64,000 bases of DNA, taken from positions 27,647 to 91,646 of the forward strand of contig JAZAMN010000018.1 in NCBI GenBank assembly GCA_036229005.1. Direction: 5' to 3'. Source of the stretch: Myxococcota bacterium. Its GTDB lineage: Bacteria; Myxococcota_A; UBA796; CAJQPC01. Below, piece after piece: positions 53,268 to 62,348 of the stretch. The notes below the pieces were generated by a model. The model saw only the letters and a program-made list of their open reading frames with translations. It did not search any database and was not told where the DNA came from. Each line of letters starts with the position of its first letter. Position 1 is the stretch's first letter. The position numbers were made by a program, and so were the translations under genes.

Positions 53268-55064
53268 TTGCAAGCACTGATCCGCTGGACCGAGGACCTG
53301 CCGGGTGTCGCGGACGACGCGACCCTGGCCATCCGAGTGCGTGTCCAGCACGCGATCTGGCTGCTCTCTGTGGGCCTGGGCACCCTCTACGTCGTCGGAT
53401 TCCTGGTCCTGGGGGTCTACGGCGGCGCCATCTCGGTCACGCTGCTCATCCTCCTGACCACCCTCGCCCTGTTCGGCTTCACCCGGCGCGGCAACCCCAC
53501 CTGGGGCGGCCGGGTCATGTCCTGGGTGTTCTTCCTGAACTTCCTGGGGGCCATCGCCGGTCGCGGCGGCGTCGAGGGCAGCGCCATCCCCTGGCTCCTG
53601 CTCCCTCCCGTCGTGGGCGCCCTGATGCTGGACATGCGGGAGGCCATCCGCCTGACGCTCGCCACCATCGTGGCCGTCGTGGGCTTCTGGCTCTTCGAGA
53701 ACGTCTACGGCCACGAGCTGGTCTCTGACGTCCCCGAGCACCTGCGAAAGTACGCCCCACTGGTGGACTACCCGGCCATCTCCCTGATGCTTCTGGCCGC
53801 CTTCTGGGGCATCCGGAACGTCTTCAAGGCCACCAACCGACGCCTGGATCAACAGAACCAGGCCCTCCAGCGCGAGGTCGCCCAGCGCAAGGAGGCCGAA
53901 GCCCAGGCCCGCCTGGCCGCCCAGGCCCGCTACACCTTCCTGGCGACCATGTCCCACGAGATCCGCACCCCCCTCAACGGCGTGCTGGGCCTCACCCAGG
54001 TGCTGGAGCGCACCCCGCTGAGCGCCGACCAGCAGCAGCTCGTGGGGACCATCCAGGTCTCCGGGGGGCTGCTGCGCCGCCTGCTTGACGATGTCCTCGA
54101 CTACGCCAAGGTGGACTCCGGGCACATGGAGCTGGATCCCGAGGCGGTGGACCTGCGCGTGCTGTGCACCCAGCTCCTCTCCCTCTGGCGGGGCAGCGCA
54201 CAGGAACGCGGCATCGACCTGCGCCTGGAGCTCGACTGGGAGGGTCCGCTGTGGGTGCGGCTCGACGCCAACAAGCTGCGCCAGATCCTGGGCAACCTGG
54301 TCTCCAACGCCCTCAAGTTCACCCCGCCCCAGGGCCGCGTCACGCTGCGGATCCAGACCACCCTGACCCAGCTCCACCTGAGCGTGTCGGACACCGGCTC
54401 CGGCATCTCCGAGCAGGACCAGCAGACGATCTTCGAGGCCTTCAAGCAGGCCGACGGCAGCGACACCCGCGCGCACGGGGGGACCGGCCTGGGCCTCGCG
54501 ATCAGCCAACGCCTGAGCCAGCTCATGGGCGGGCAGATCCACCTGGAGTCCACCCTGGGGGAGGGCAGCAGCTTCCACGTCACCCTGCCCCGAGAGGACG
54601 CCCCAGCCTCCCCGGAGGCCCCTGAGCCCAAGCAGGAGGAGGAGGTGGCTGGTCTGCGTGTGCTGGTTGCGGAGGACAACGTCGTCAATCAGCTCGTGAT
54701 CCAACGCCTGCTGCTGGAGCTCGGCGTCGAGGTCACCCTGGCGCAGAACGGTCAGGAGGCCCTGGAGCGCTGGCAGGCGGAGCAGCCCGACGTGATCTTC
54801 ATGGACTGCCAGATGCCCGTGTGCGACGGCTTCCAGGCCACCCGCCGGATCCGAGCGGCCGGCGGCACCCTGCCCATCGTGGCGCTCACCGCCAACGCCA
54901 TGCCCGATGACCGCGCCCGCTGCATCGACGCCGGCATGGACGAGCACCTGGGCAAGCCCGTGGAGCGGGAGGCCCTGCACGCCGTGCTGCTTTCACTCTC
55001 CCCCAAGGGTCCGGACTACCAGCCAGGTCGCCAGAAGAAGCTGGCGCTGGCCCGGGACTCGTAG
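53268..55064 (+). CDS. Membrane-bound hybrid histidine kinase (HisKA-HATPase-REC)
   Basis: MSHEIRTPLNG, NLVSNALKFT, DTGSG, GTGLGLAI, AEDN...FMDCQMP. Confidence 0.95.
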   Translation: MQALIRWTEDLPGVADDATLAIRVRVQHAIWLLSVGLGTLYVVGFLVLGVYGGAISVTLLILLTTLALFGFTRRGNPTWGGRVMSWVFFLNFLGAIAGRGGVEGSAIPWLLLPPVVGALMLDMREAIRLTLATIVAVVGFWLFENVYGHELVSDVPEHLRKYAPLVDYPAISLMLLAAFWGIRNVFKATNRRLDQQNQALQREVAQRKEAEAQARLAAQARYTFLATMSHEIRTPLNGVLGLTQVLERTPLSADQQQLVGTIQVSGGLLRRLLDDVLDYAKVDSGHMELDPEAVDLRVLCTQLLSLWRGSAQERGIDLRLELDWEGPLWVRLDANKLRQILGNLVSNALKFTPPQGRVTLRIQTTLTQLHLSVSDTGSGISEQDQQTIFEAFKQADGSDTRAHGGTGLGLAISQRLSQLMGGQIHLESTLGEGSSFHVTLPREDAPASPEAPEPKQEEEVAGLRVLVAEDNVVNQLVIQRLLLELGVEVTLAQNGQEALERWQAEQPDVIFMDCQMPVCDGFQATRRIRAAGGTLPIVALTANAMPDDRARCIDAGMDEHLGKPVEREALHAVLLSLSPKGPDYQPGRQKKLALARDS

Positions 55065-55876
55065 CGCAGCCCGGTGTCCTGGGGGTCGGCGGCGGCCGCG
55101 TAGCGCACCAGCGCGTGGCTCCCGCACTCCCCCCGCGACCAGTCGCCGTCGGCCAGGGCGTCCAGGTAGGCCCCTGGGATCACGAGCGCGCCGCTGTCCG
55201 GGCCCTCGCACTCGATCTCCGCGGCGCCGATGCCCCCGTGCGAGCCCACGCAGTCCGTCATGTGCAGGCGGACGCGGCTGTCCTCCAGGGGGTCGGTCCA
55301 GCGCAGGGTGAGGTCCTCGCCGGCCGCCCGCGCGCTCAGGGCGTCCTCCCAGGAGCCGTCGGGGGTCACAGGCAGCAGCGTGGGCGCCTCCAGGGTGATC
55401 GCGCTGACGGTGACCTCGCTGGCACCCACAGTGCTGGCTTGCGCGGACCCCCAGTAGCCCAGGAGGTCGTCCGGCTGGAGCTCCTCGCTGCCCTCCGGCC
55501 AGCTCCACAGAAGGGCCCCCCGATCCTCCCGCGGCGCCTCCCCCACGCACTCGCCGTCCACGCACTGCTCCCCCCACTCGCAGCCCGCGTCACAGAAGCT
55601 GCTCTCGAAGCCGACCAGGCGGCAGCTCCCCTCGCGCTCCAGCTCGGTCTGGAAGTCCACCGGCGGGCTGTCCGAGAAGGACGCGAACAGGCCCCCGCTG
55701 TCGTACGCCAGCCACCAGTCGGCCGCGGCGAGGCTGTGGGGTCGGGAGAAGTCGGGCCCATCGTCCAGCGAGGCGCTGTAGTTGGCGCTGCCGCCGGGCA
55801 GGGGGGTGGGCAGAGGCTGGGAGCCGTCGCCCCCACAGGCCAAAAGGACGGGGGCGAGGAGGATCAGGGTGTTCAT
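55016..55876 (-). CDS. Cys-rich hypothetical lipoprotein
   Basis: VLLAC lipobox; CDAGCEWGEQCVDGEC. Confidence 0.75.
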   Translation of the reverse strand: MNTLILLAPVLLACGGDGSQPLPTPLPGGSANYSASLDDGPDFSRPHSLAAADWWLAYDSGGLFASFSDSPPVDFQTELEREGSCRLVGFESSFCDAGCEWGEQCVDGECVGEAPREDRGALLWSWPEGSEELQPDDLLGYWGSAQASTVGASEVTVSAITLEAPTLLPVTPDGSWEDALSARAAGEDLTLRWTDPLEDSRVRLHMTDCVGSHGGIGAAEIECEGPDSGALVIPGAYLDALADGDWSRGECGSHALVRYAAAADPQDTGLRYESRASASFFWRPGW

Positions 55877-55995
55877 GGGTCTGGGATACACCCTCTGGCC
55901 CGGGGTCACCAGCGCGACATCCTTGCCCTGATCCCGCCAGCGAGGTGCTGTCTCCGCTCTGCGTACACTCCGATGCCGTCGGCCTCCGCCGCGGC

Positions 55996-56011
55996 TGGCA
56001 CGGCTCCTGCT
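55996..56011 (+). promoter_or_regulatory. Sigma54 (-24/-12) promoter
   Basis: TGGCACGGCTCCTGCT, GG-N10-GC spacing, one mismatch to TGGCACG-N4-TTGCW; 30 nt before ATG 56042. Confidence 0.75.
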
Positions 56012-56041
56012 ACCGTGCAAGAGTACCCACCTGGAGCCGCC

Positions 56042-56386
56042 ATGAAGCCCTGTCCGCACTGCGACCGTCACATCCTCAACAGCCCCGACCAGTGCCCCCA
56101 CTGCGGGGAGCCCCTGCGCGGGCCCATGGGCAAGCTGCTCAAGGCCGTCGGCGCCGGCGCCACCATGGTCATGCTGGCCGCCTGCTACGGCCCCGGCCCC
56201 GGCTGGGACGACACCGGCCGCCTGGACAGCGGCAGCGACACCGACCTGGACGGCTGGAACGACGCCGACGACTGCGCCCCTGAAGACGCCAACATCCACC
56301 CCGGGGCCGAGGAGATCTGCAACGACGGCATCGACAACGACTGCGACGAGCTCGTGGACGCTGACGACGAGGCCTGCGCCGAGTGA
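56042..56386 (+). CDS. Putative splicease substrate: Zn-ribbon leader, LAAC-YG, MopE-type motif
   Basis: MKPCPHCDRH...CPHCG...MLAACYGPGP...EEICNDGIDNDCD; GGAG RBS. Confidence 0.85.
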   Translation: MKPCPHCDRHILNSPDQCPHCGEPLRGPMGKLLKAVGAGATMVMLAACYGPGPGWDDTGRLDSGSDTDLDGWNDADDCAPEDANIHPGAEEICNDGIDNDCDELVDADDEACAE

Positions 56387-56652
56387 GCCGACGCCTCTCC
56401 ATCGCGGCCCTGCTGCTCGGCCTCTTCACCGGCTGCGCGGACTCCAGCTTCGCCCTGGTCCCCGCCGAGGACTGGGCGGGCATGGACAGCGGCGACACGG
56501 CGCAGGACAGCGATGGAGACGGCGCGCCCGACAGCGAGGACTGCGCCCCGGACGACCCCTACACCGCCCCCGGCGCGGACGAGATCTGCAACGACGGCAT
56601 CGACAACGACTGCGACGACAAGGTCGACGCCCTGGACGAGGACTGCCCATGA
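56383..56652 (+). CDS. Small lipoprotein with MopE-type motif
   Basis: LFTGC lipobox, DEICNDGIDNDCD; GTGA overlap. Confidence 0.82.
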   Translation: MSRRLSIAALLLGLFTGCADSSFALVPAEDWAGMDSGDTAQDSDGDGAPDSEDCAPDDPYTAPGADEICNDGIDNDCDDKVDALDEDCP

Positions 56653-56933
56653 AGCGCGCGATGTTGATGCTGGCCCTGCTGATGGGGGCCACCGCCTGCA
56701 CGGACGGGCCGCTGATCGTGAACCCCGACGAGATCTGGTGGGACACCGGCTGGGACACCGCTGTGGACAGCGGCGTGAGCGGCGAGGACAACGACGCCGA
56801 CGGCTGGGTGGAGTCCGACGACTGCGACGACAGTGACCCCGAGGTGTTCCCCGACGCCGAGGAGATCTGCAACGACGGCGTGGACAACGACTGCGACGGC
56901 TACCTCGACGAAGAGGACAATGACTGCTGGTGA
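56649..56933 (+). CDS. Small lipoprotein with MopE-type motif
   Basis: GATAC lipobox, EEICNDGVDNDCDG; ATGA overlap. Confidence 0.82.
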   Translation: MKRAMLMLALLMGATACTDGPLIVNPDEIWWDTGWDTAVDSGVSGEDNDADGWVESDDCDDSDPEVFPDAEEICNDGVDNDCDGYLDEEDNDCW

Positions 56934-58104
56934 GCGGGCGCCCCGCCGCTCTCCGCGCCGAATCGACCCCAGCAGCGCGTTCCGGCCGGTCTACGTGGTC
57001 TGGGAGCTCACCCTCAAGTGCGACCTGGCCTGCCGGCACTGCGGCTCGCGCGCGGGTCGGCAGCGGGAGCGGGAGCTGTCCCTGGACGAGGCCCTGGGCG
57101 TGCTGGATCAGCTCGCCGCGCTGGGCACCCGGGAGCTGGCCTTCATCGGCGGCGAGGCCTACCTCTACCCGGACTGGCTGGAGCTGGTGCGCGGGGCCGC
57201 GCAGCGGGGGATCCGCCCCACGATGACCTCGGGGGCGCGTGCCCTGGACCGAGAGTTGTGTCAGCGGGCGGCGGACGCGGGGTTGGAGGCGATCTCCGTG
57301 AGCGTCGATGGCCTCTCCTCCACCCACGACACCCTCCGGGCGGTCAAGGGCTCCCACGCGGCGTGCATGGCGGCGCTGGGCCACATCCGGGACGCGGGCA
57401 TGCAGCCCTTCGCCAACACGCAGATCAACCGGCTGAACCTGCCGGAGCTGCCCGAGCTCACCGCGGAGCTGGAGGCGGCGGGGATCATCTGCTGGCAGGT
57501 GCAGCTCACCGGCCCCATGGGGCGCGCCGCGGACCGCCCCGAGTGGCTGCTGCAGCCCTACGAGATGCTGGAGGCCTTCGACATCCTGGGGCCCCTGGCC
57601 AAGGGCATGACGGAGCGCGGGATCGTGGTGAACGCCGGGAACAACCTGGGCTACTACGGCCCCTGGGAGCGGTGGATCCGACGCGCCCCCTACGGCGGCT
57701 GCGCGGCCGGGCGCCACGTGCTGGGGATCGAGGCCAACGGCGACATCAAGGGCTGCCCCAGCCTGCCCAGCGGTCCCTACGTGGGGGCCAACCTGCGCGA
57801 CGTGGACCTGGCCACCGCCTGGGAGGAGAACGCGACCGTGGCCTTTGCCCGGGACCGCGGGACCAGCGAGCTCTGGGGGCACTGCGCGGGCTGCTACTAC
57901 GCGAGCGTGTGCAAGGGCGGCTGTAGCTGGACGGCTCATGCAGCCCTGGGACGCCGGGGGAACATGCCCTGGTGCCACCACCGGGCGCTGGAGCTCAAGA
58001 AGCAGGGTCGACGGGAGCTTCTGGAGCTTGTTCAGCGCGCCCCGGGCGATCCCTTCGACATGGGGTCATTCGCCCTGCGAGAAGAGGACTGGCCGCAGGA
58101 GTGA
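56920..58104 (+). CDS. Radical SAM/SPASM peptide maturase, PlpX-like splicease family
   Basis: VWELTLKCDLACRHCGSRAG, NTQINR, WQVQLTGPMG, GNNLGYYGP, GIEANGDIKGCPSL, CxxCxxxxxCKGGCSWTAH, CHHRA. Confidence 0.9.
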   Translation: MTAGERAPRRSPRRIDPSSAFRPVYVVWELTLKCDLACRHCGSRAGRQRERELSLDEALGVLDQLAALGTRELAFIGGEAYLYPDWLELVRGAAQRGIRPTMTSGARALDRELCQRAADAGLEAISVSVDGLSSTHDTLRAVKGSHAACMAALGHIRDAGMQPFANTQINRLNLPELPELTAELEAAGIICWQVQLTGPMGRAADRPEWLLQPYEMLEAFDILGPLAKGMTERGIVVNAGNNLGYYGPWERWIRRAPYGGCAAGRHVLGIEANGDIKGCPSLPSGPYVGANLRDVDLATAWEENATVAFARDRGTSELWGHCAGCYYASVCKGGCSWTAHAALGRRGNMPWCHHRALELKKQGRRELLELVQRAPGDPFDMGSFALREEDWPQE

Positions 58105-58984: not shown

Positions 58985-59602
58985 ATGGCCCGCTTGAGTC
59001 ACCGCGACGGGACCCTCACGGTCAAGATCGTCTACTACGGTCCTGGTCTGTGTGGGAAGACCACCAACCTGGTCAAGCTCCACGGAACCTACCCAGAAGA
59101 GGTGCGCGGGCCGGTGCTCAAGCTGGACACCGAGACCGAGCGCACGCTGTTCTTTGACTACTTCCCGGCCGAGCTCGGCAAGGTGGGCAACTACCAGCTC
59201 AAGGCCGAGTTCTTCACCGTTCCGGGCCAGTCCTTCTACAACAACACCCGCAAGGCGGTCCTGGAGCGCGTGGACGGGCTGGTGTTCGTCGCGGACTCGG
59301 ACCCCCGGCGGGAAGACGCCAACCTGGTCTCCCTGCAGAACCTCCAGGAGAACCTGCGGGCGATGGGCTCCGACATCGAGCGACTGCCCATGGTGATGCA
59401 GTGGAACAAGCGGGACATCCCCGGCGCCCTCTCCGTCAAGCTGCTGGAGCGCCAGCTCAACCCGCGGGGGCTGCCCTCCGTGCCGGCTGTGGCCTCCCAG
59501 GGAGAGGGTGTGTGGGAGACGCAGGAGCAGATCCTCCAGGAGGTCATCGCGCAGCTCCGGAAGCGCGCCCGCCGGCGCCGAGGTGCACGTGCCCGCGCTT
59601 GA
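58985..59602 (+). CDS. mglA: MglA-family small GTPase (probably a paralogue)
   Basis: KIVYYGPGLCGKTTNL, TETERTLFFD, TVPGQ, VFVADS, NKRD. Confidence 0.93.
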   Translation: MARLSHRDGTLTVKIVYYGPGLCGKTTNLVKLHGTYPEEVRGPVLKLDTETERTLFFDYFPAELGKVGNYQLKAEFFTVPGQSFYNNTRKAVLERVDGLVFVADSDPRREDANLVSLQNLQENLRAMGSDIERLPMVMQWNKRDIPGALSVKLLERQLNPRGLPSVPAVASQGEGVWETQEQILQEVIAQLRKRARRRRGARARA

Positions 59603-60260
59603 AGGGGAGCTGGGGGTCCTGAGCCTCTCCGGCCTGCTCCAGATGCTCCAGGGGGAGAGGATCAGCGGTCGCTTGGCCCTGGGGGCTGGTCACGTTGACC
59701 TCCGCACCGGTCAGGTGGTCGACGCCGTGTTCGATGGTCTGTCAGGCGAGGCCGCCCTGATGGAGATCTTCGTCAAGGCCAGCGGCCGGTTCAGCCTGGA
59801 CGTGGCCCACGAGCCCCAGGGGGAGTCCCTGGGCGACGTGGTGTCCCTGGTGATGGACGGCTGCCGCCTGCAGGACGAGTGGTCCCAGATGAAGGACCGC
59901 GGGGTCTCCATCCAGGACGACGCCAACATCCCCGACTGGGTGCAGAGCGTCGAAACCGAGCTGCGCGCTGGCTACCCGCTGGCGTGGATCGCCTCCCAGC
60001 GCAGGGTGGCCAGCGTGGACCTGGCGGAGGCCGTCCAGGAGCTGATCGAGCTGGGCGAGGCCCGCCTGGTCGCCCCCACCGAGCCCCCCATGGAGCTGGA
60101 CTACTGGGGCGCGCTGGAGCTCGGCCGCGAGCGCTACCGGGAGCAGTCCTGGTCCGACGCCGCGCGCGCCTTCCAGCTCGCCCTGGACCGCAAGCCAGGC
60201 GACCGCATCGCGACCCAGAATCTCCACGCCGCCGAGAAGCGCGCACGGGAGTCCGCATGA
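59589..60260 (+). CDS. DUF4388 (PatA-N-like) domain protein with C-terminal TPR-like motif
   Basis: LEGELGVLSLSGLLQML...SGRL...GQVVDA...GEAAL...GRF...LVMDGCRLQDE. Confidence 0.85.
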   Translation: MPALEGELGVLSLSGLLQMLQGERISGRLALGAGHVDLRTGQVVDAVFDGLSGEAALMEIFVKASGRFSLDVAHEPQGESLGDVVSLVMDGCRLQDEWSQMKDRGVSIQDDANIPDWVQSVETELRAGYPLAWIASQRRVASVDLAEAVQELIELGEARLVAPTEPPMELDYWGALELGRERYREQSWSDAARAFQLALDRKPGDRIATQNLHAAEKRARESA

Positions 60261-60625
60261 GCACCGACACCGGCTTGTCCGGAATCCTGGAGCGCCTCAG
60301 CCTGTCCTCGCAGGGGGGGGCCGCGTTGATCTGTGATCGCGAGGGGCTGTTGCTGGGGTGCACCGGGGACACCCCGAGCGCCGAGATCCTCGCCGGCCTG
60401 GTGAGCATGGTTGAGGACGTGGTCACCCGCAGCGAGCGCATGAACGCAAAGCGCGTGGACGAGGTCACCCTGCTGGACGAACAGCGGGAGCGGCTGGTCA
60501 TCCGACCCCTGGACCTGCGCGGGGGCCGCTACTTCCTGGTGCTGCGCCTGGGCGCAAGGCAGACCTGGCGGCGAAACACCAACGAGGCCTGCCGGGCGAT
60601 CGCACAGCATCTGGGGGCTGCGTGA
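60257..60625 (+). CDS. Roadblock/LC7-like protein
   Basis: GAALICDREGLLLG; about 120 aa; GTPase operon context. Confidence 0.72.
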   Translation: MSTDTGLSGILERLSLSSQGGAALICDREGLLLGCTGDTPSAEILAGLVSMVEDVVTRSERMNAKRVDEVTLLDEQRERLVIRPLDLRGGRYFLVLRLGARQTWRRNTNEACRAIAQHLGAA

Positions 60626-61437
60626 GCCCGGGCCTGCCAACCCTGGAGCTGGACCTGGACCTGGACGCGGACGACCTCGAGGCCCTCTTCGAGCCGGACG
60701 ACCTGGAGCCCATCGAAGAGGAGTTCGACGCCCTCAAGTCACTGACCCGGGCCATCTCCAGCCAGTACTCCGAGACCATCGCCAGCTTCGTGCGGCTCTC
60801 CTTCCAGGGGGAGGAGCTGGGCATGCTGGAGGACCAGATGCGCGCGGCGCTGGCCAGCCTGGGGCGCCTGGCTCACGGCACGGGCGATGGCGAGCTCTCC
60901 GATGCGCTGGTCTCCCTGGAGGCCCTGGTCCCCGAGGCCCGCATCCGCGGTGGACAGCGTCGGGAGCGCTACCTGCGGGAGATGCGCACCTGGGTGCTGG
61001 ACTTCGCCCGCCTGCTGGGCGCGGTCGAGGGCAAGCGCCTGCTGGACCTGGTCCGCTACGACGAGCGCAGCCGCCCCCTGCTGCACCGCCTGGAGGAGGT
61101 CTACGGCATCGGCCCTCGGCGCCTGGAGCGTCTGTACCTGGCCGGCCTGCTCTCGGTCGAGACCCTGATGGACGCCGACCCCGCTGAGGTCGCGCAGGTC
61201 ACCGGGATGTCCCCGCGCCTGGTGCGCAGCCTGATCTACGCCGCCCAGCGCTTCGACAAGCGCCGCCGCATGGAGTCTGCCCGGCAGCTCCTGGACCGCT
61301 GCCGCGACGTGGTGGCCATCGCAGACGCCCTCAACGAGAACGGCCAGGTCGCGCCCGACCTGCTCCACGCGATGCTCACCGCGCGCATGGAGCTGGACGC
61401 CGCCCTGACCCGCCTGGACCCCAAGGAGACAGCATGA
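60622..61437 (+). CDS. Helix-hairpin-helix domain protein with acidic N-terminus
   Basis: VYGIGPRRLERLYLAGLLSVETLMDADPAEVAQVTGM. Confidence 0.78.
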   Translation: MSPGLPTLELDLDLDADDLEALFEPDDLEPIEEEFDALKSLTRAISSQYSETIASFVRLSFQGEELGMLEDQMRAALASLGRLAHGTGDGELSDALVSLEALVPEARIRGGQRRERYLREMRTWVLDFARLLGAVEGKRLLDLVRYDERSRPLLHRLEEVYGIGPRRLERLYLAGLLSVETLMDADPAEVAQVTGMSPRLVRSLIYAAQRFDKRRRMESARQLLDRCRDVVAIADALNENGQVAPDLLHAMLTARMELDAALTRLDPKETA

Positions 61438-61967
61438 ACTGGAGCGAGCTTGTGGCCGCCACCGCCGAGCGCGCGGGGCTGAGCCAGGCAGACGCCCGCC
61501 GGGCCCTGAACGCCATGCGCGACACCGTGATCGAACAGCTCGCCCAGGGCGAGCGCGTGACCTTGCACAACCTGGGCACCTTCGAGAGCCGAGAGCGCAA
61601 GGCTCGGGTCATCCGCAACATCGGCGACTTCCGCAAGATGTACCTGGGCCCCGCCCGCCGGGTGGTTTTCCGCCCTGCGCAGGCCCTCAAGCGGGAGCTG
61701 CAGGACCCGGATCCCAACTGGAAGAAGCCCGAGCATCAGGCCGCCTGGCGCTTGGCCGAGGCCCTGGTGGGAGACCTGGACCTCTACCACGCCGACCAGG
61801 CCCCAAAGGACGTCGGCGGCAGCGACACCCAGGTCCGCAGCGCCTGCTCCGAGGCCTTCGGAGCGACCTGGGACAGCGCCGTCGAGAGCTACAGAACGCA
61901 GGTCCATCCAGAGGTCCTGAGCGCACAAGACTACCTGGCCAGCGCCGCCCGAAAGCGCTGGTCCTGA
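61434..61967 (+). CDS. HU-family DNA-binding protein with C-terminal extension
   Basis: MNWSELVAA.AERAGLSQADA...GERVTLHNLGTF..RERKAR..RN...FRPAQALK. Confidence 0.88.
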   Translation: MNWSELVAATAERAGLSQADARRALNAMRDTVIEQLAQGERVTLHNLGTFESRERKARVIRNIGDFRKMYLGPARRVVFRPAQALKRELQDPDPNWKKPEHQAAWRLAEALVGDLDLYHADQAPKDVGGSDTQVRSACSEAFGATWDSAVESYRTQVHPEVLSAQDYLASAARKRWS

Positions 61968-61976
61968 GGAGGGAAC

Positions 61977-62348
61977 ATGGCCCAGAACCGCTATCAGAGA
62001 ATCCAGGCCGCCCTGGAAGAGTTGGTCGACGGAACCCCCGACATCAAGGGCGCCGCCCTGGTCTCCGACGATGGCCTGGTCATCGGCTCGGTGCTCCACG
62101 CCGACGTCAATGAAGACAGCGTGGGTGGCATGGCCTCCGTGCTCCAGAGCCTGGGCTTCCGGGTGACCAATGAGCTGGAGTTGGGGGAGATGGACCAGAT
62201 CCTCATCCGCGCCAAGCAGGGCAACGTGATGATGGTCGGCGTGGGCGAGGGCGCGCTGCTCAGCGTGCTCATGAGCCGCAACGCCAAGCTGGGGCTCGTC
62301 TTCCTGGACGTGGGCTACGCCGTGAAGAACCTCGCAGAGATGATCTGA
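61977..62348 (+). CDS. Roadblock/LC7 (MglB-like) protein
   Basis: IKGAALVSDDGLVIGS, ELELGEMDQILI, AKLGLVFLD. Confidence 0.92.
   Translation: MAQNRYQRIQAALEELVDGTPDIKGAALVSDDGLVIGSVLHADVNEDSVGGMASVLQSLGFRVTNELELGEMDQILIRAKQGNVMMVGVGEGALLSVLMSRNAKLGLVFLDVGYAVKNLAEMI

Follow-up and report, generated by a model that had tools for sequence, protein, structure and literature searches.

The present analysis concerns a four-gene operon located in a 64,000-nucleotide stretch of DNA from a Myxococcota bacterium (assembly GCA_036229005.1, contig JAZAMN010000018.1, positions 27,647 to 91,646 of the forward strand), hereafter called the window. It associates a radical S-adenosylmethionine (SAM)/SPASM enzyme, assigned below to the splicease group, with a candidate substrate whose predicted lipid-anchor cysteine is directly followed by Tyr-Gly (YG). 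The four genes lie on the + strand, with overlaps of 4, 4 and 14 bases, downstream of a TGGCAC-N5-CTGC element. A preliminary description of the locus had reported this element, the overlapping genes, the ribbon, the MLAAC-YG and the enzyme, and all of them were recovered in place:

55996..56010, + strand: sigma54-like -24/-12 element TGGCAC-N5-CTGC, 46 bases ahead of gene 1; accessory
56042..56386, + strand: gene 1, candidate substrate of 114 amino acids with ribbon, basic stretch, helix, lipobox, YG and acidic MopE-like tail
56051..56104, + strand: four-cysteine ribbon CPHC-x10-CPHC (CxxC-x10-CPxC), residues 4-21 of gene 1, a putative cytoplasmic module recruiting or activating the enzyme
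56135..56182, + strand: hydrophobic helix ending in L-A-A (h-region, lipobox -3 to -1), residues 32-47
56183..56191, + strand: Cys48-Tyr49-Gly50, the cysteine being both the predicted lipid anchor and the X of a predicted XYG splice site
56270..56359, + strand: PF11617 MopE-like motif, a variable cargo that is not part of the core
56383..56652, + strand: gene 2, ordinary small lipoprotein with a MopE-like motif, without ribbon or YG; accessory
56649..56933, + strand: gene 3, paralogue of gene 2 with an ordinary lipoprotein signal, without ribbon or YG; accessory
56920..58104, + strand: gene 4, splicease-group enzyme (radical SAM/SPASM) of 394 amino acids, without export signal or ribbon of its own

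The gene 1 product reads, in this order, ribbon, basic stretch, hydrophobic stretch, L45-A46-A47-C48, Y49-G50-P51 and acidic tail, and Y49 is its sole tyrosine. Since an enzyme of the splicease family adjoins a lipoprotein whose only tyrosine follows the anchor cysteine, this anchor residue is probably rebuilt to a reactive keto-amide. The specific point of this work is a class of precursors with Cys-Tyr-Gly at the end of the helix (zero-linker class), and the system is real and conserved.

Enzyme, precursor family and ribbon

The preliminary description had called the enzyme PlpX-type and proposed to compare it with the models TIGR04103 and TIGR03913. These are indeed its two best NCBIfam models, but both scores remain below the cut-offs (425.9 bits for a cut-off of 725 and 388.4 bits for a cut-off of 591.75, respectively). 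TIGR04133 comes next (150 bits), and the enzyme is also under the cut-offs of AhbD (132 vs 500 bits), NirJ (110 vs 515), PqqE (84 vs 381) and the mycofactocin maturase (97 vs 265). The radical SAM motif CX3CX2C lies at C34, C38 and C41, the seven cysteines of the SPASM region are invariant across 81 aligned relatives, and the structure model has a predicted local distance difference test (pLDDT) score of 93. A Nostoc plasmid protein that lies next to a Nif11 precursor, has a small gene downstream and is annotated as a nif11-class maturase 3 shows 47.5% identity to the enzyme.

Two quick trees were built, with support from the Shimodaira-Hasegawa-like approximate likelihood ratio test (SH-aLRT) only. 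PlpX itself, which we take to be a member of TIGR04103, is absent from both; over-cut-off TIGR04103 members stand in for it, seven further ones having been collected from 151 genomes. In the first tree (99 rows, three partial enzymes being excluded), the query groups with the TIGR04103 members and with two GDL-type enzymes, apart from three distant outgroups from the query's own genome, which sit on long branches (support 98). The second tree (80 rows) was obtained by dropping the outgroups, the loci without classified precursor and 19 near-duplicates and by adding 18 rows; there, the over-cut-off TIGR04103 members nest within the enzymes that have precursors with ribbon and lipobox (SH-aLRT 99). 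Model scores and trees thus place the enzyme with spliceases and not with NirJ, AhbD or PqqE. Furthermore, four TIGR04103 members share 93 columns with at least 90% of the linker-type enzymes, i.e. those whose precursors carry YG further downstream, and the query enzyme retains 87 of these columns. Zero-linker enzymes differ from type I (TIGR04103) and linker-type ones at positions 198 (G or T instead of V) and 243 (L instead of I or V). Because of these model scores, tree grouping and shared columns, we regard the enzyme as a member of the splicease group, taken broadly, that falls outside both curated families. No splicease was found among solved structures, either by sequence search (best match SkfB, E 1e-17) or by fold search (identity of at most 24% among the matches listed); the nearest solved folds include thioether-forming maturases, with about 20% identity.

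Precursors were surveyed in 157 fetched loci, 155 of them with an enzyme match, using a model seeded from YG-containing precursors after a YG-blind first pass. This survey revealed 133 distinct ribbon-bearing precursors, 130 of which have a hydrophobic helix ended by a cysteine; the three others are one cut at a contig end, one short and apparently broken frame and one intact precursor devoid of the cysteine. YG is present in 127 of these 130 precursors, directly after the cysteine in 49 (zero-linker class) and 1 to 734 residues further in 78 (linker class, with linkers of 1, 3 and 5 residues among them), and is absent from three. The two classes never occur in the same locus. The conservation of Cys-Tyr-Gly at the lipobox, which the preliminary description had proposed to look for in homologous loci, holds in all 49 zero-linker cases, and the triplet is invariant in the 36 aligned precursors of this class. 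In addition, glycine follows only two of the 58 later tyrosines of the 49 zero-linker precursors, and none of 49 ordinary MopE-bearing lipoprotein candidates of the same genome has a tyrosine at +2. The presence of Cys-Tyr-Gly at the lipobox is far above chance. Thus, the two points checked among those on which the splicease idea had initially been made to depend, i.e. the grouping of the enzyme and the conservation of YG, both came out in its favour.

The pairing of precursor and enzyme is equally constant, the enzyme being found in the fetched stretch at 43 of the 44 zero-linker loci. An independent sample was drawn from 201 genomes of the same phylum, 62 of which matched at E <= 1e-80, and consisted of the 30 loci whose enzymes scored best; although picked by enzyme score alone, 29 of these loci carry a ribbon precursor, including three zero-linker ones. 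Of the 79 loci that the query enzyme retrieved, 30 belong to the zero-linker class. This class takes in every close relative whose precursor could be seen and also includes four loci of Leptospiraceae and seven loci of a phylum sample centred on a Sericytochromatia genome, so that it spans three phyla (Myxococcota-type genomes, Leptospiraceae and the Cyanobacteriota sample). A profile search of 1.84 billion representatives yielded 115 single-domain proteins among its best 150 matches, all with [LM]-x-A-C-Y-G, a motif that the profile itself favours; the other 35 are multi-ribbon proteins. A search of the ESM Atlas found nothing beyond unnamed clusters with MopE motifs.

The tails of the zero-linker precursors vary, being MopE-like in 34 of the 49 and otherwise of low complexity or unrelated (that of Leptospiraceae has no Pfam match), and the conserved unit consists of ribbon, helix, lipobox and YG. 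The "surface metal-binding domain" of the preliminary description is consequently dispensable, and the MopE motif was ruled out as the purpose of the system. Zero-linker enzymes are strongly clustered on the tree (four changes compared to 24.8 with shuffled labels), 30 of the 31 lying within one set of 38 rows that also holds eight linker-type rows. A single origin of the class was rejected (approximately unbiased test, p = 0.007); as it does not form one clade, the zero-linker state was gained or lost more than once. The arrangement is tolerated or favoured over long evolutionary distances.

Other members of this family were observed in the course of the survey. The same genome carries a third system (C74:16083-17864), in which a ribbon precursor has a 69-residue linker before VYG and an adjoining enzyme of its own. 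It also carries an orphan paralogous enzyme (C22:74963-76177) and an orphan ribbon precursor (C59:119685-120035) with a lipobox, a 9-residue linker, LYG and a MopE-like tail. This enzyme and this precursor may pair in trans, since the enzyme groups with those of two loci (L024 and L028) whose precursors share the same design. Genomes of the same family display tandem runs of weaker matches to the precursor model, 7-13 per genome (G159:C128, G166:C333 and G174:C197). Lastly, one enzyme (L138:1390-2721, genome G261) ends in K-Y-G-A-P-P, possibly a splice site on its own tail, and has no ribbon precursor in the fetched stretch.

The position of the ribbon differs between systems, as shown by two groups of enzymes:

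L084:2393-3943, L085:2944-4368 and L086:2180-3802: ribbon-bearing enzymes (at the C-terminus of the GDL-type ones, at the N-terminus of that of Tropicibacter)
L154:1947-3725, L155:1936-3768 and L157:1987-3735: enzyme-substrate fusions, in genomes G315, G347 and G358

Two GDL-type enzymes, whose DUF1843 precursors are devoid of ribbon, have a matching CxxC-x10-CPHC ribbon at their C-terminus (probabilities of 85 and 67 in profile comparisons), which maps to positions of about 430-457 of the TIGR03913 model. The enzyme encoded by a Tropicibacter plasmid carries it at the N-terminus. None of the enzymes found beside ribbon precursors has a ribbon of its own, nor does any of the 30 best enzymes of the same phylum, 29 of which have ribbon precursors. 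Furthermore, three divergent enzymes (35% identity) are fused in frame to a hydrophobic helix and a lipobox-like cysteine, without ribbon, and carry two to four CC-x-C-(D/E)-YG repeats. Since the ribbon is found on the substrate or on the enzyme, or is absent when the two are fused, it probably recruits or activates the enzyme, and the initial suggestion that it could be the recognition element has thereby gained support. According to passages of PMC11414181, the enzyme is activated by PlpY or by a leader helix, be this element a separate molecule, a part of the precursor or a fusion to the enzyme; the placement of the ribbon would be parallel to that of these activators, and the movable ribbon would be a natural equivalent of the activator fusions engineered in that study.

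The helix-ending cysteine and its possible fates

Three results argue for LAAC being a real lipobox. Firstly, the residue before the helix-ending cysteine is G, A or S in all 130 precursors, compared to 91 of 450 downstream cysteines, in a search that did not require any box. The cysteine and this neighbour are kept in the 78 precursors whose YG lies elsewhere, which suggests that the cysteine is kept for a reason other than splicing. Secondly, L-x-A-C is the usual box in the 49 control lipoprotein candidates of the genome, also picked without requiring a box (-1 Ala in 41, Gly in eight). Thirdly, the 36 aligned class members all have a K or R within the n-region, and the last 12 residues of their helix are uncharged. 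LAAC also fits the consensus L-A/S-G/A-C given in a passage of PMC9360617. The hydropathy of these last 12 residues is 1.8 in gene 1 and 2.24 +/- 0.53 in the control signals. The predicted structure of the precursor, a low-confidence model (pLDDT 63) of which only the helix limits are usable, places a helix at residues 34-48. An internal start at Met30 as the beginning of the true signal peptide was rejected because this residue is not conserved (Ile in L004). As for the processing enzymes, the availability of Lgt and LspA was borne out: four Lgt, two LspA and one Lnt exceed the cut-offs in the genome. The Lgt and LspA genes lie in C8:68341-71709 and on three other contigs, both LspA adjoining one Lgt. 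The genome also contains 70 open reading frames (ORFs) with MopE-like motifs, many of them with very short lipoprotein signals.

That the enzyme modifies the Cys-Tyr-Gly site in one way or another appears highly probable, and that it does so by excising tyramine, whether or not the product is lipidated, is likely. In the complete reading that we favour, with a rough probability of 0.42, cytoplasmic splicing would convert the anchor cysteine to an alpha-keto-beta-residue that would then be lipidated, giving a stable product. Gene 1 and the enzyme would be made together, as suggested by the overlapping genes and the conserved pairing, and the N-terminal ribbon of the precursor would dock on the enzyme in the cytoplasm, in place of PlpY or of a leader helix, as its placement suggests. 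The enzyme would act first and in this compartment, since it has no export signal and needs iron-sulfur clusters. Judging from its family, it would excise tyramine (C8H9NO, -135.07 Da) from Cys48-Tyr49-Gly50 and rejoin the chain, Cys48 becoming the alpha-keto-beta-residue. The helix would take the chain into the membrane, leaving the ribbon inside. Given the lipobox and the genes present, Lgt would put a diacylglycerol on the Cys48 thiol, LspA would cut between Ala47 and Cys48 and Lnt would acylate the amine. These steps would be compatible in principle, since splicing uses the carbonyl side of Cys48 whereas the lipoprotein enzymes use its sulfur and nitrogen; Lgt and LspA are not known to accept a beta-keto residue. 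The product would be a ketoamide electrophile at the level of the lipid head groups, above a variable hydrophilic tail. Its role might be to inhibit or trap a membrane-proximal serine or cysteine hydrolase, a speculative guess made because spliceotides inhibit proteases and because peptide ketoamides inhibit signal peptidase I, according to a passage of PMC9360617. Modification in the cytoplasm before lipidation has a precedent in MNIO-modified diacylglycerol (DAG) RiPPs (peptides made on the ribosome and then post-translationally modified), as described in passages of PMC13056109.

Several points weigh against this reading. The enzyme misses the cut-offs of both splicease models by a wide margin, and passages of the splicease literature do not report cysteine at X. 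According to passages of PMC10533398, spliced residues enolise at the former alpha-carbon, so that a thioether on the spliced residue could be lost by beta-elimination. The same source gives AVAA-X-YG as a PlpXY splice tag, and LAAC could therefore owe its form to recognition by the enzyme. Consistently, zero-linker precursors show a more uniform box (-1 Ala in 49/49) than linker-class ones, and this uniformity exceeds what lipidation alone requires. The helix of the class is slightly less hydrophobic than the control signals (1.93 vs 2.24) and stands behind a ribbon of 21 residues, an uncommon arrangement for a signal peptide; the anchor cysteine is residue 48 instead of lying within about 30 residues of the N-terminus as usual. 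The ribbon match covers only 24 residues, ribbons are common, and generic ones score 20-23 bits with the same model, compared to 22-26 for those borne by enzymes. Closely related members are present in the samples. Finally, since the zero-linker enzymes do not form one clade, the zero-linker arrangement may represent the lower end of the length range of a labile linker rather than a dedicated design.

Unlikely, but to be weighed with care, is the alternative in which splicing at Cys-Tyr-Gly would block or replace lipoprotein processing, leaving an uncleaved membrane helix that bears a Leu-Ala-Ala-Cys-ketoamide, or in which splicing and lipidation would be alternative fates of one and the same chain. 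The uncleaved product would be a substrate mimic for signal-processing proteases, which would agree with the inhibition of signal peptidase I by peptide ketoamides. The residues before the cysteine are tighter in the zero-linker class than a lipobox needs and, since passages of PMC9360617 put the residues around the lipobox cysteine in the LspA cleft, an altered backbone could matter there. However, an uncleaved helix would need no thiol, and X is cysteine in the 115 single-domain top matches of the profile that favours it and in 49 of 49 cases on the enzyme side, whereas many residues occur at X in other spliceotides and in the linker class. Moreover, the scissile Ala-Cys amide would be untouched by splicing.

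More improbable is a diversion of the radical by the cysteine thiol, which would give a thioether, a Cys-Tyr link or a chain cleavage instead of the loss of tyramine. The substitutions of zero-linker enzymes at positions 198 and 243 and the thioether-forming maturases among the nearest solved folds point in this direction. However, the tree mixes zero-linker enzymes with short-linker ones, in keeping with a single common reaction, the precursors have the same YG-x-P context as type I ones, and the conserved columns of the splicease group are almost all retained.

Still a little less credible is the possibility that the intermediate is both spliced and lipidated and that its diacylglyceryl thioether is then eliminated, either with release of the chain from the membrane or with formation of a Michael acceptor, an N-acyl dehydro-ketoamide. 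Besides the documented enolisation of spliced residues (passages of PMC10533398), general chemistry indicates that a ketone with a sulfur leaving group at its beta position is primed for elimination. Against this, thioethers leave only moderately well, and the ketone of known products is hydrated in part (passages of PMC11414181).

Finally, it is very improbable that gene 1 encodes one more ordinary lipoprotein in an expanded family with MopE motifs, the enzyme having another substrate: the genome does hold its 70 MopE-motif ORFs and the operon two YG-free ones, but the loci chosen by enzyme score alone nearly all carry a ribbon precursor, nearly all zero-linker loci carry the enzyme, and YG is invariant.

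Accessory features, surroundings and related systems

The accessory features comprise genes 2 and 3 as well as the MopE motif and the sigma54-like site. The identification of three MopE-motif lipoproteins was confirmed, genes 1, 2 and 3 scoring 35.8, 28.5 and 44.3 bits with PF11617 for a cut-off of 27. Nevertheless, genes 2 and 3, taken at first as parts of the system, are not conserved among genomes of the same genus (n = 3): the interval between precursor and enzyme contains no lipoprotein gene in one and a single such gene in another, and in the third the locus stops just past the precursor. The TGGCAC-N5-CTGC element resembles the sigma54 -24/-12 consensus. It is present as announced and is kept 39-42 bases upstream in 3/3 genomes of the genus, but it is nearly limited to this genus (5 of 81 precursors overall, with a background of 1.9% per 150 bases). 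By itself, the 15-mer is not above chance in the window (two matches vs 1.09 expected; 28 of 100 shuffles reach two). A sigma70-like promoter and a terminator were searched for at the locus and neither was found. One RNA run contained 6% of the sampled words and gave a single 190-base contig on gene 1, too little to use. In agreement with the preliminary description, no peptidase, no exporter and no gene resembling PlpY or an RRE could be recognised among the ORFs nearby. Upstream, a divergent gene (55016-55879, - strand) encodes a probable lipoprotein of 287 amino acids without Pfam or NCBIfam match, which is absent beside the relatives checked. Downstream, a gene run unrelated to the operon (58985-62348) includes a small Arf/MglA-like GTPase (PF00025) and genes that we take, by eye, to be roadblock and HU-like.

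Among known systems, the type I spliceotide systems (PlpX/PlpY/PlpA, PcpXYA; TIGR04103) have an enzyme of the same group (47-49% identity to the over-cut-off members) and share with this one the XYG-x-P site and a cytoplasmic radical SAM/SPASM enzyme. The present system differs from them by its score (425.9 bits vs 725), by the lack of the Nif11 leader and of PlpY, both found beside the reference members, and by a substrate that has a ribbon, a membrane helix and a lipobox. In addition, X is natively Met or Leu for PlpX, compared to Cys here. The binary spliceases RhaX/RhaA, RcsX and RasX, as described in passages of PMC11414181 and PMC11626197, likewise have two components, with the activator in the N-terminus of the precursor; according to these descriptions they are set apart by a PlpY-like leader helix, in contrast to the four-cysteine ribbon and the helix ending at the splice site found here. 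The TIGR03913 GDL-motif maturases with DUF1843 precursors have a 44-47% identical enzyme and the matching ribbon, but there the ribbon is on the enzyme instead of the substrate and the precursors are short soluble peptides; here, the score is 388.4 bits vs 591.75, the C-terminus of the enzyme has no ribbon and there is no DUF1843 match. TIGR04133 also comprises radical SAM/SPASM enzymes adjoining a lipoprotein, whose family is TIGR04134, but it is a separate family (150 vs 425 bits here).

The DAG-RiPPs DybA/DybH and NedA/NedBC are likewise modified in the cytoplasm and then lipidated by Lgt, LspA and Lnt of the host, and they likewise do without dedicated peptidase or exporter (passages of PMC13056109). 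However, they depend on MNIO enzymes instead of radical SAM ones, and those of the ChrH/DybH subfamily are modified, according to the same passages, on a C-terminal motif away from the anchor, whereas the anchor cysteine itself would be modified here. The main text of PMC13056109 does not mention radical SAM or splicing. No publication describing a lipoprotein as the target of a splicease came to light in a search that left most subscription papers and the main splicease-type survey outside its reach, and this negative result gives weak support to novelty.

According to passages of a 2022 review, the final products of spliceotide pathways in their native hosts remain unknown. This question would be directly testable here with two small genes, because the precursor spells out the maturation route and the exact N-terminus. 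Should lipidation fail after splicing, the product would still be a membrane-helix ketoamide mimicking a substrate of signal peptidase. If the favoured reading is true, it would extend the logic of DAG-RiPPs from MNIO to radical SAM chemistry and provide a genetically encoded lipid-tethered ketoamide. Tentatively, the zero-linker precursors could represent a recurring class of lipoproteins in which a single cysteine is altered at its sulfur by a diacylglycerol, at its nitrogen by a fatty acyl group and at its carbonyl by splicing to an alpha-ketoamide, with the mobile four-cysteine ribbon as the part that recruits the enzyme. They would thus carry a new covalent form of lipoprotein anchor, electrophilic and non-canonical, produced by radical surgery of the backbone.

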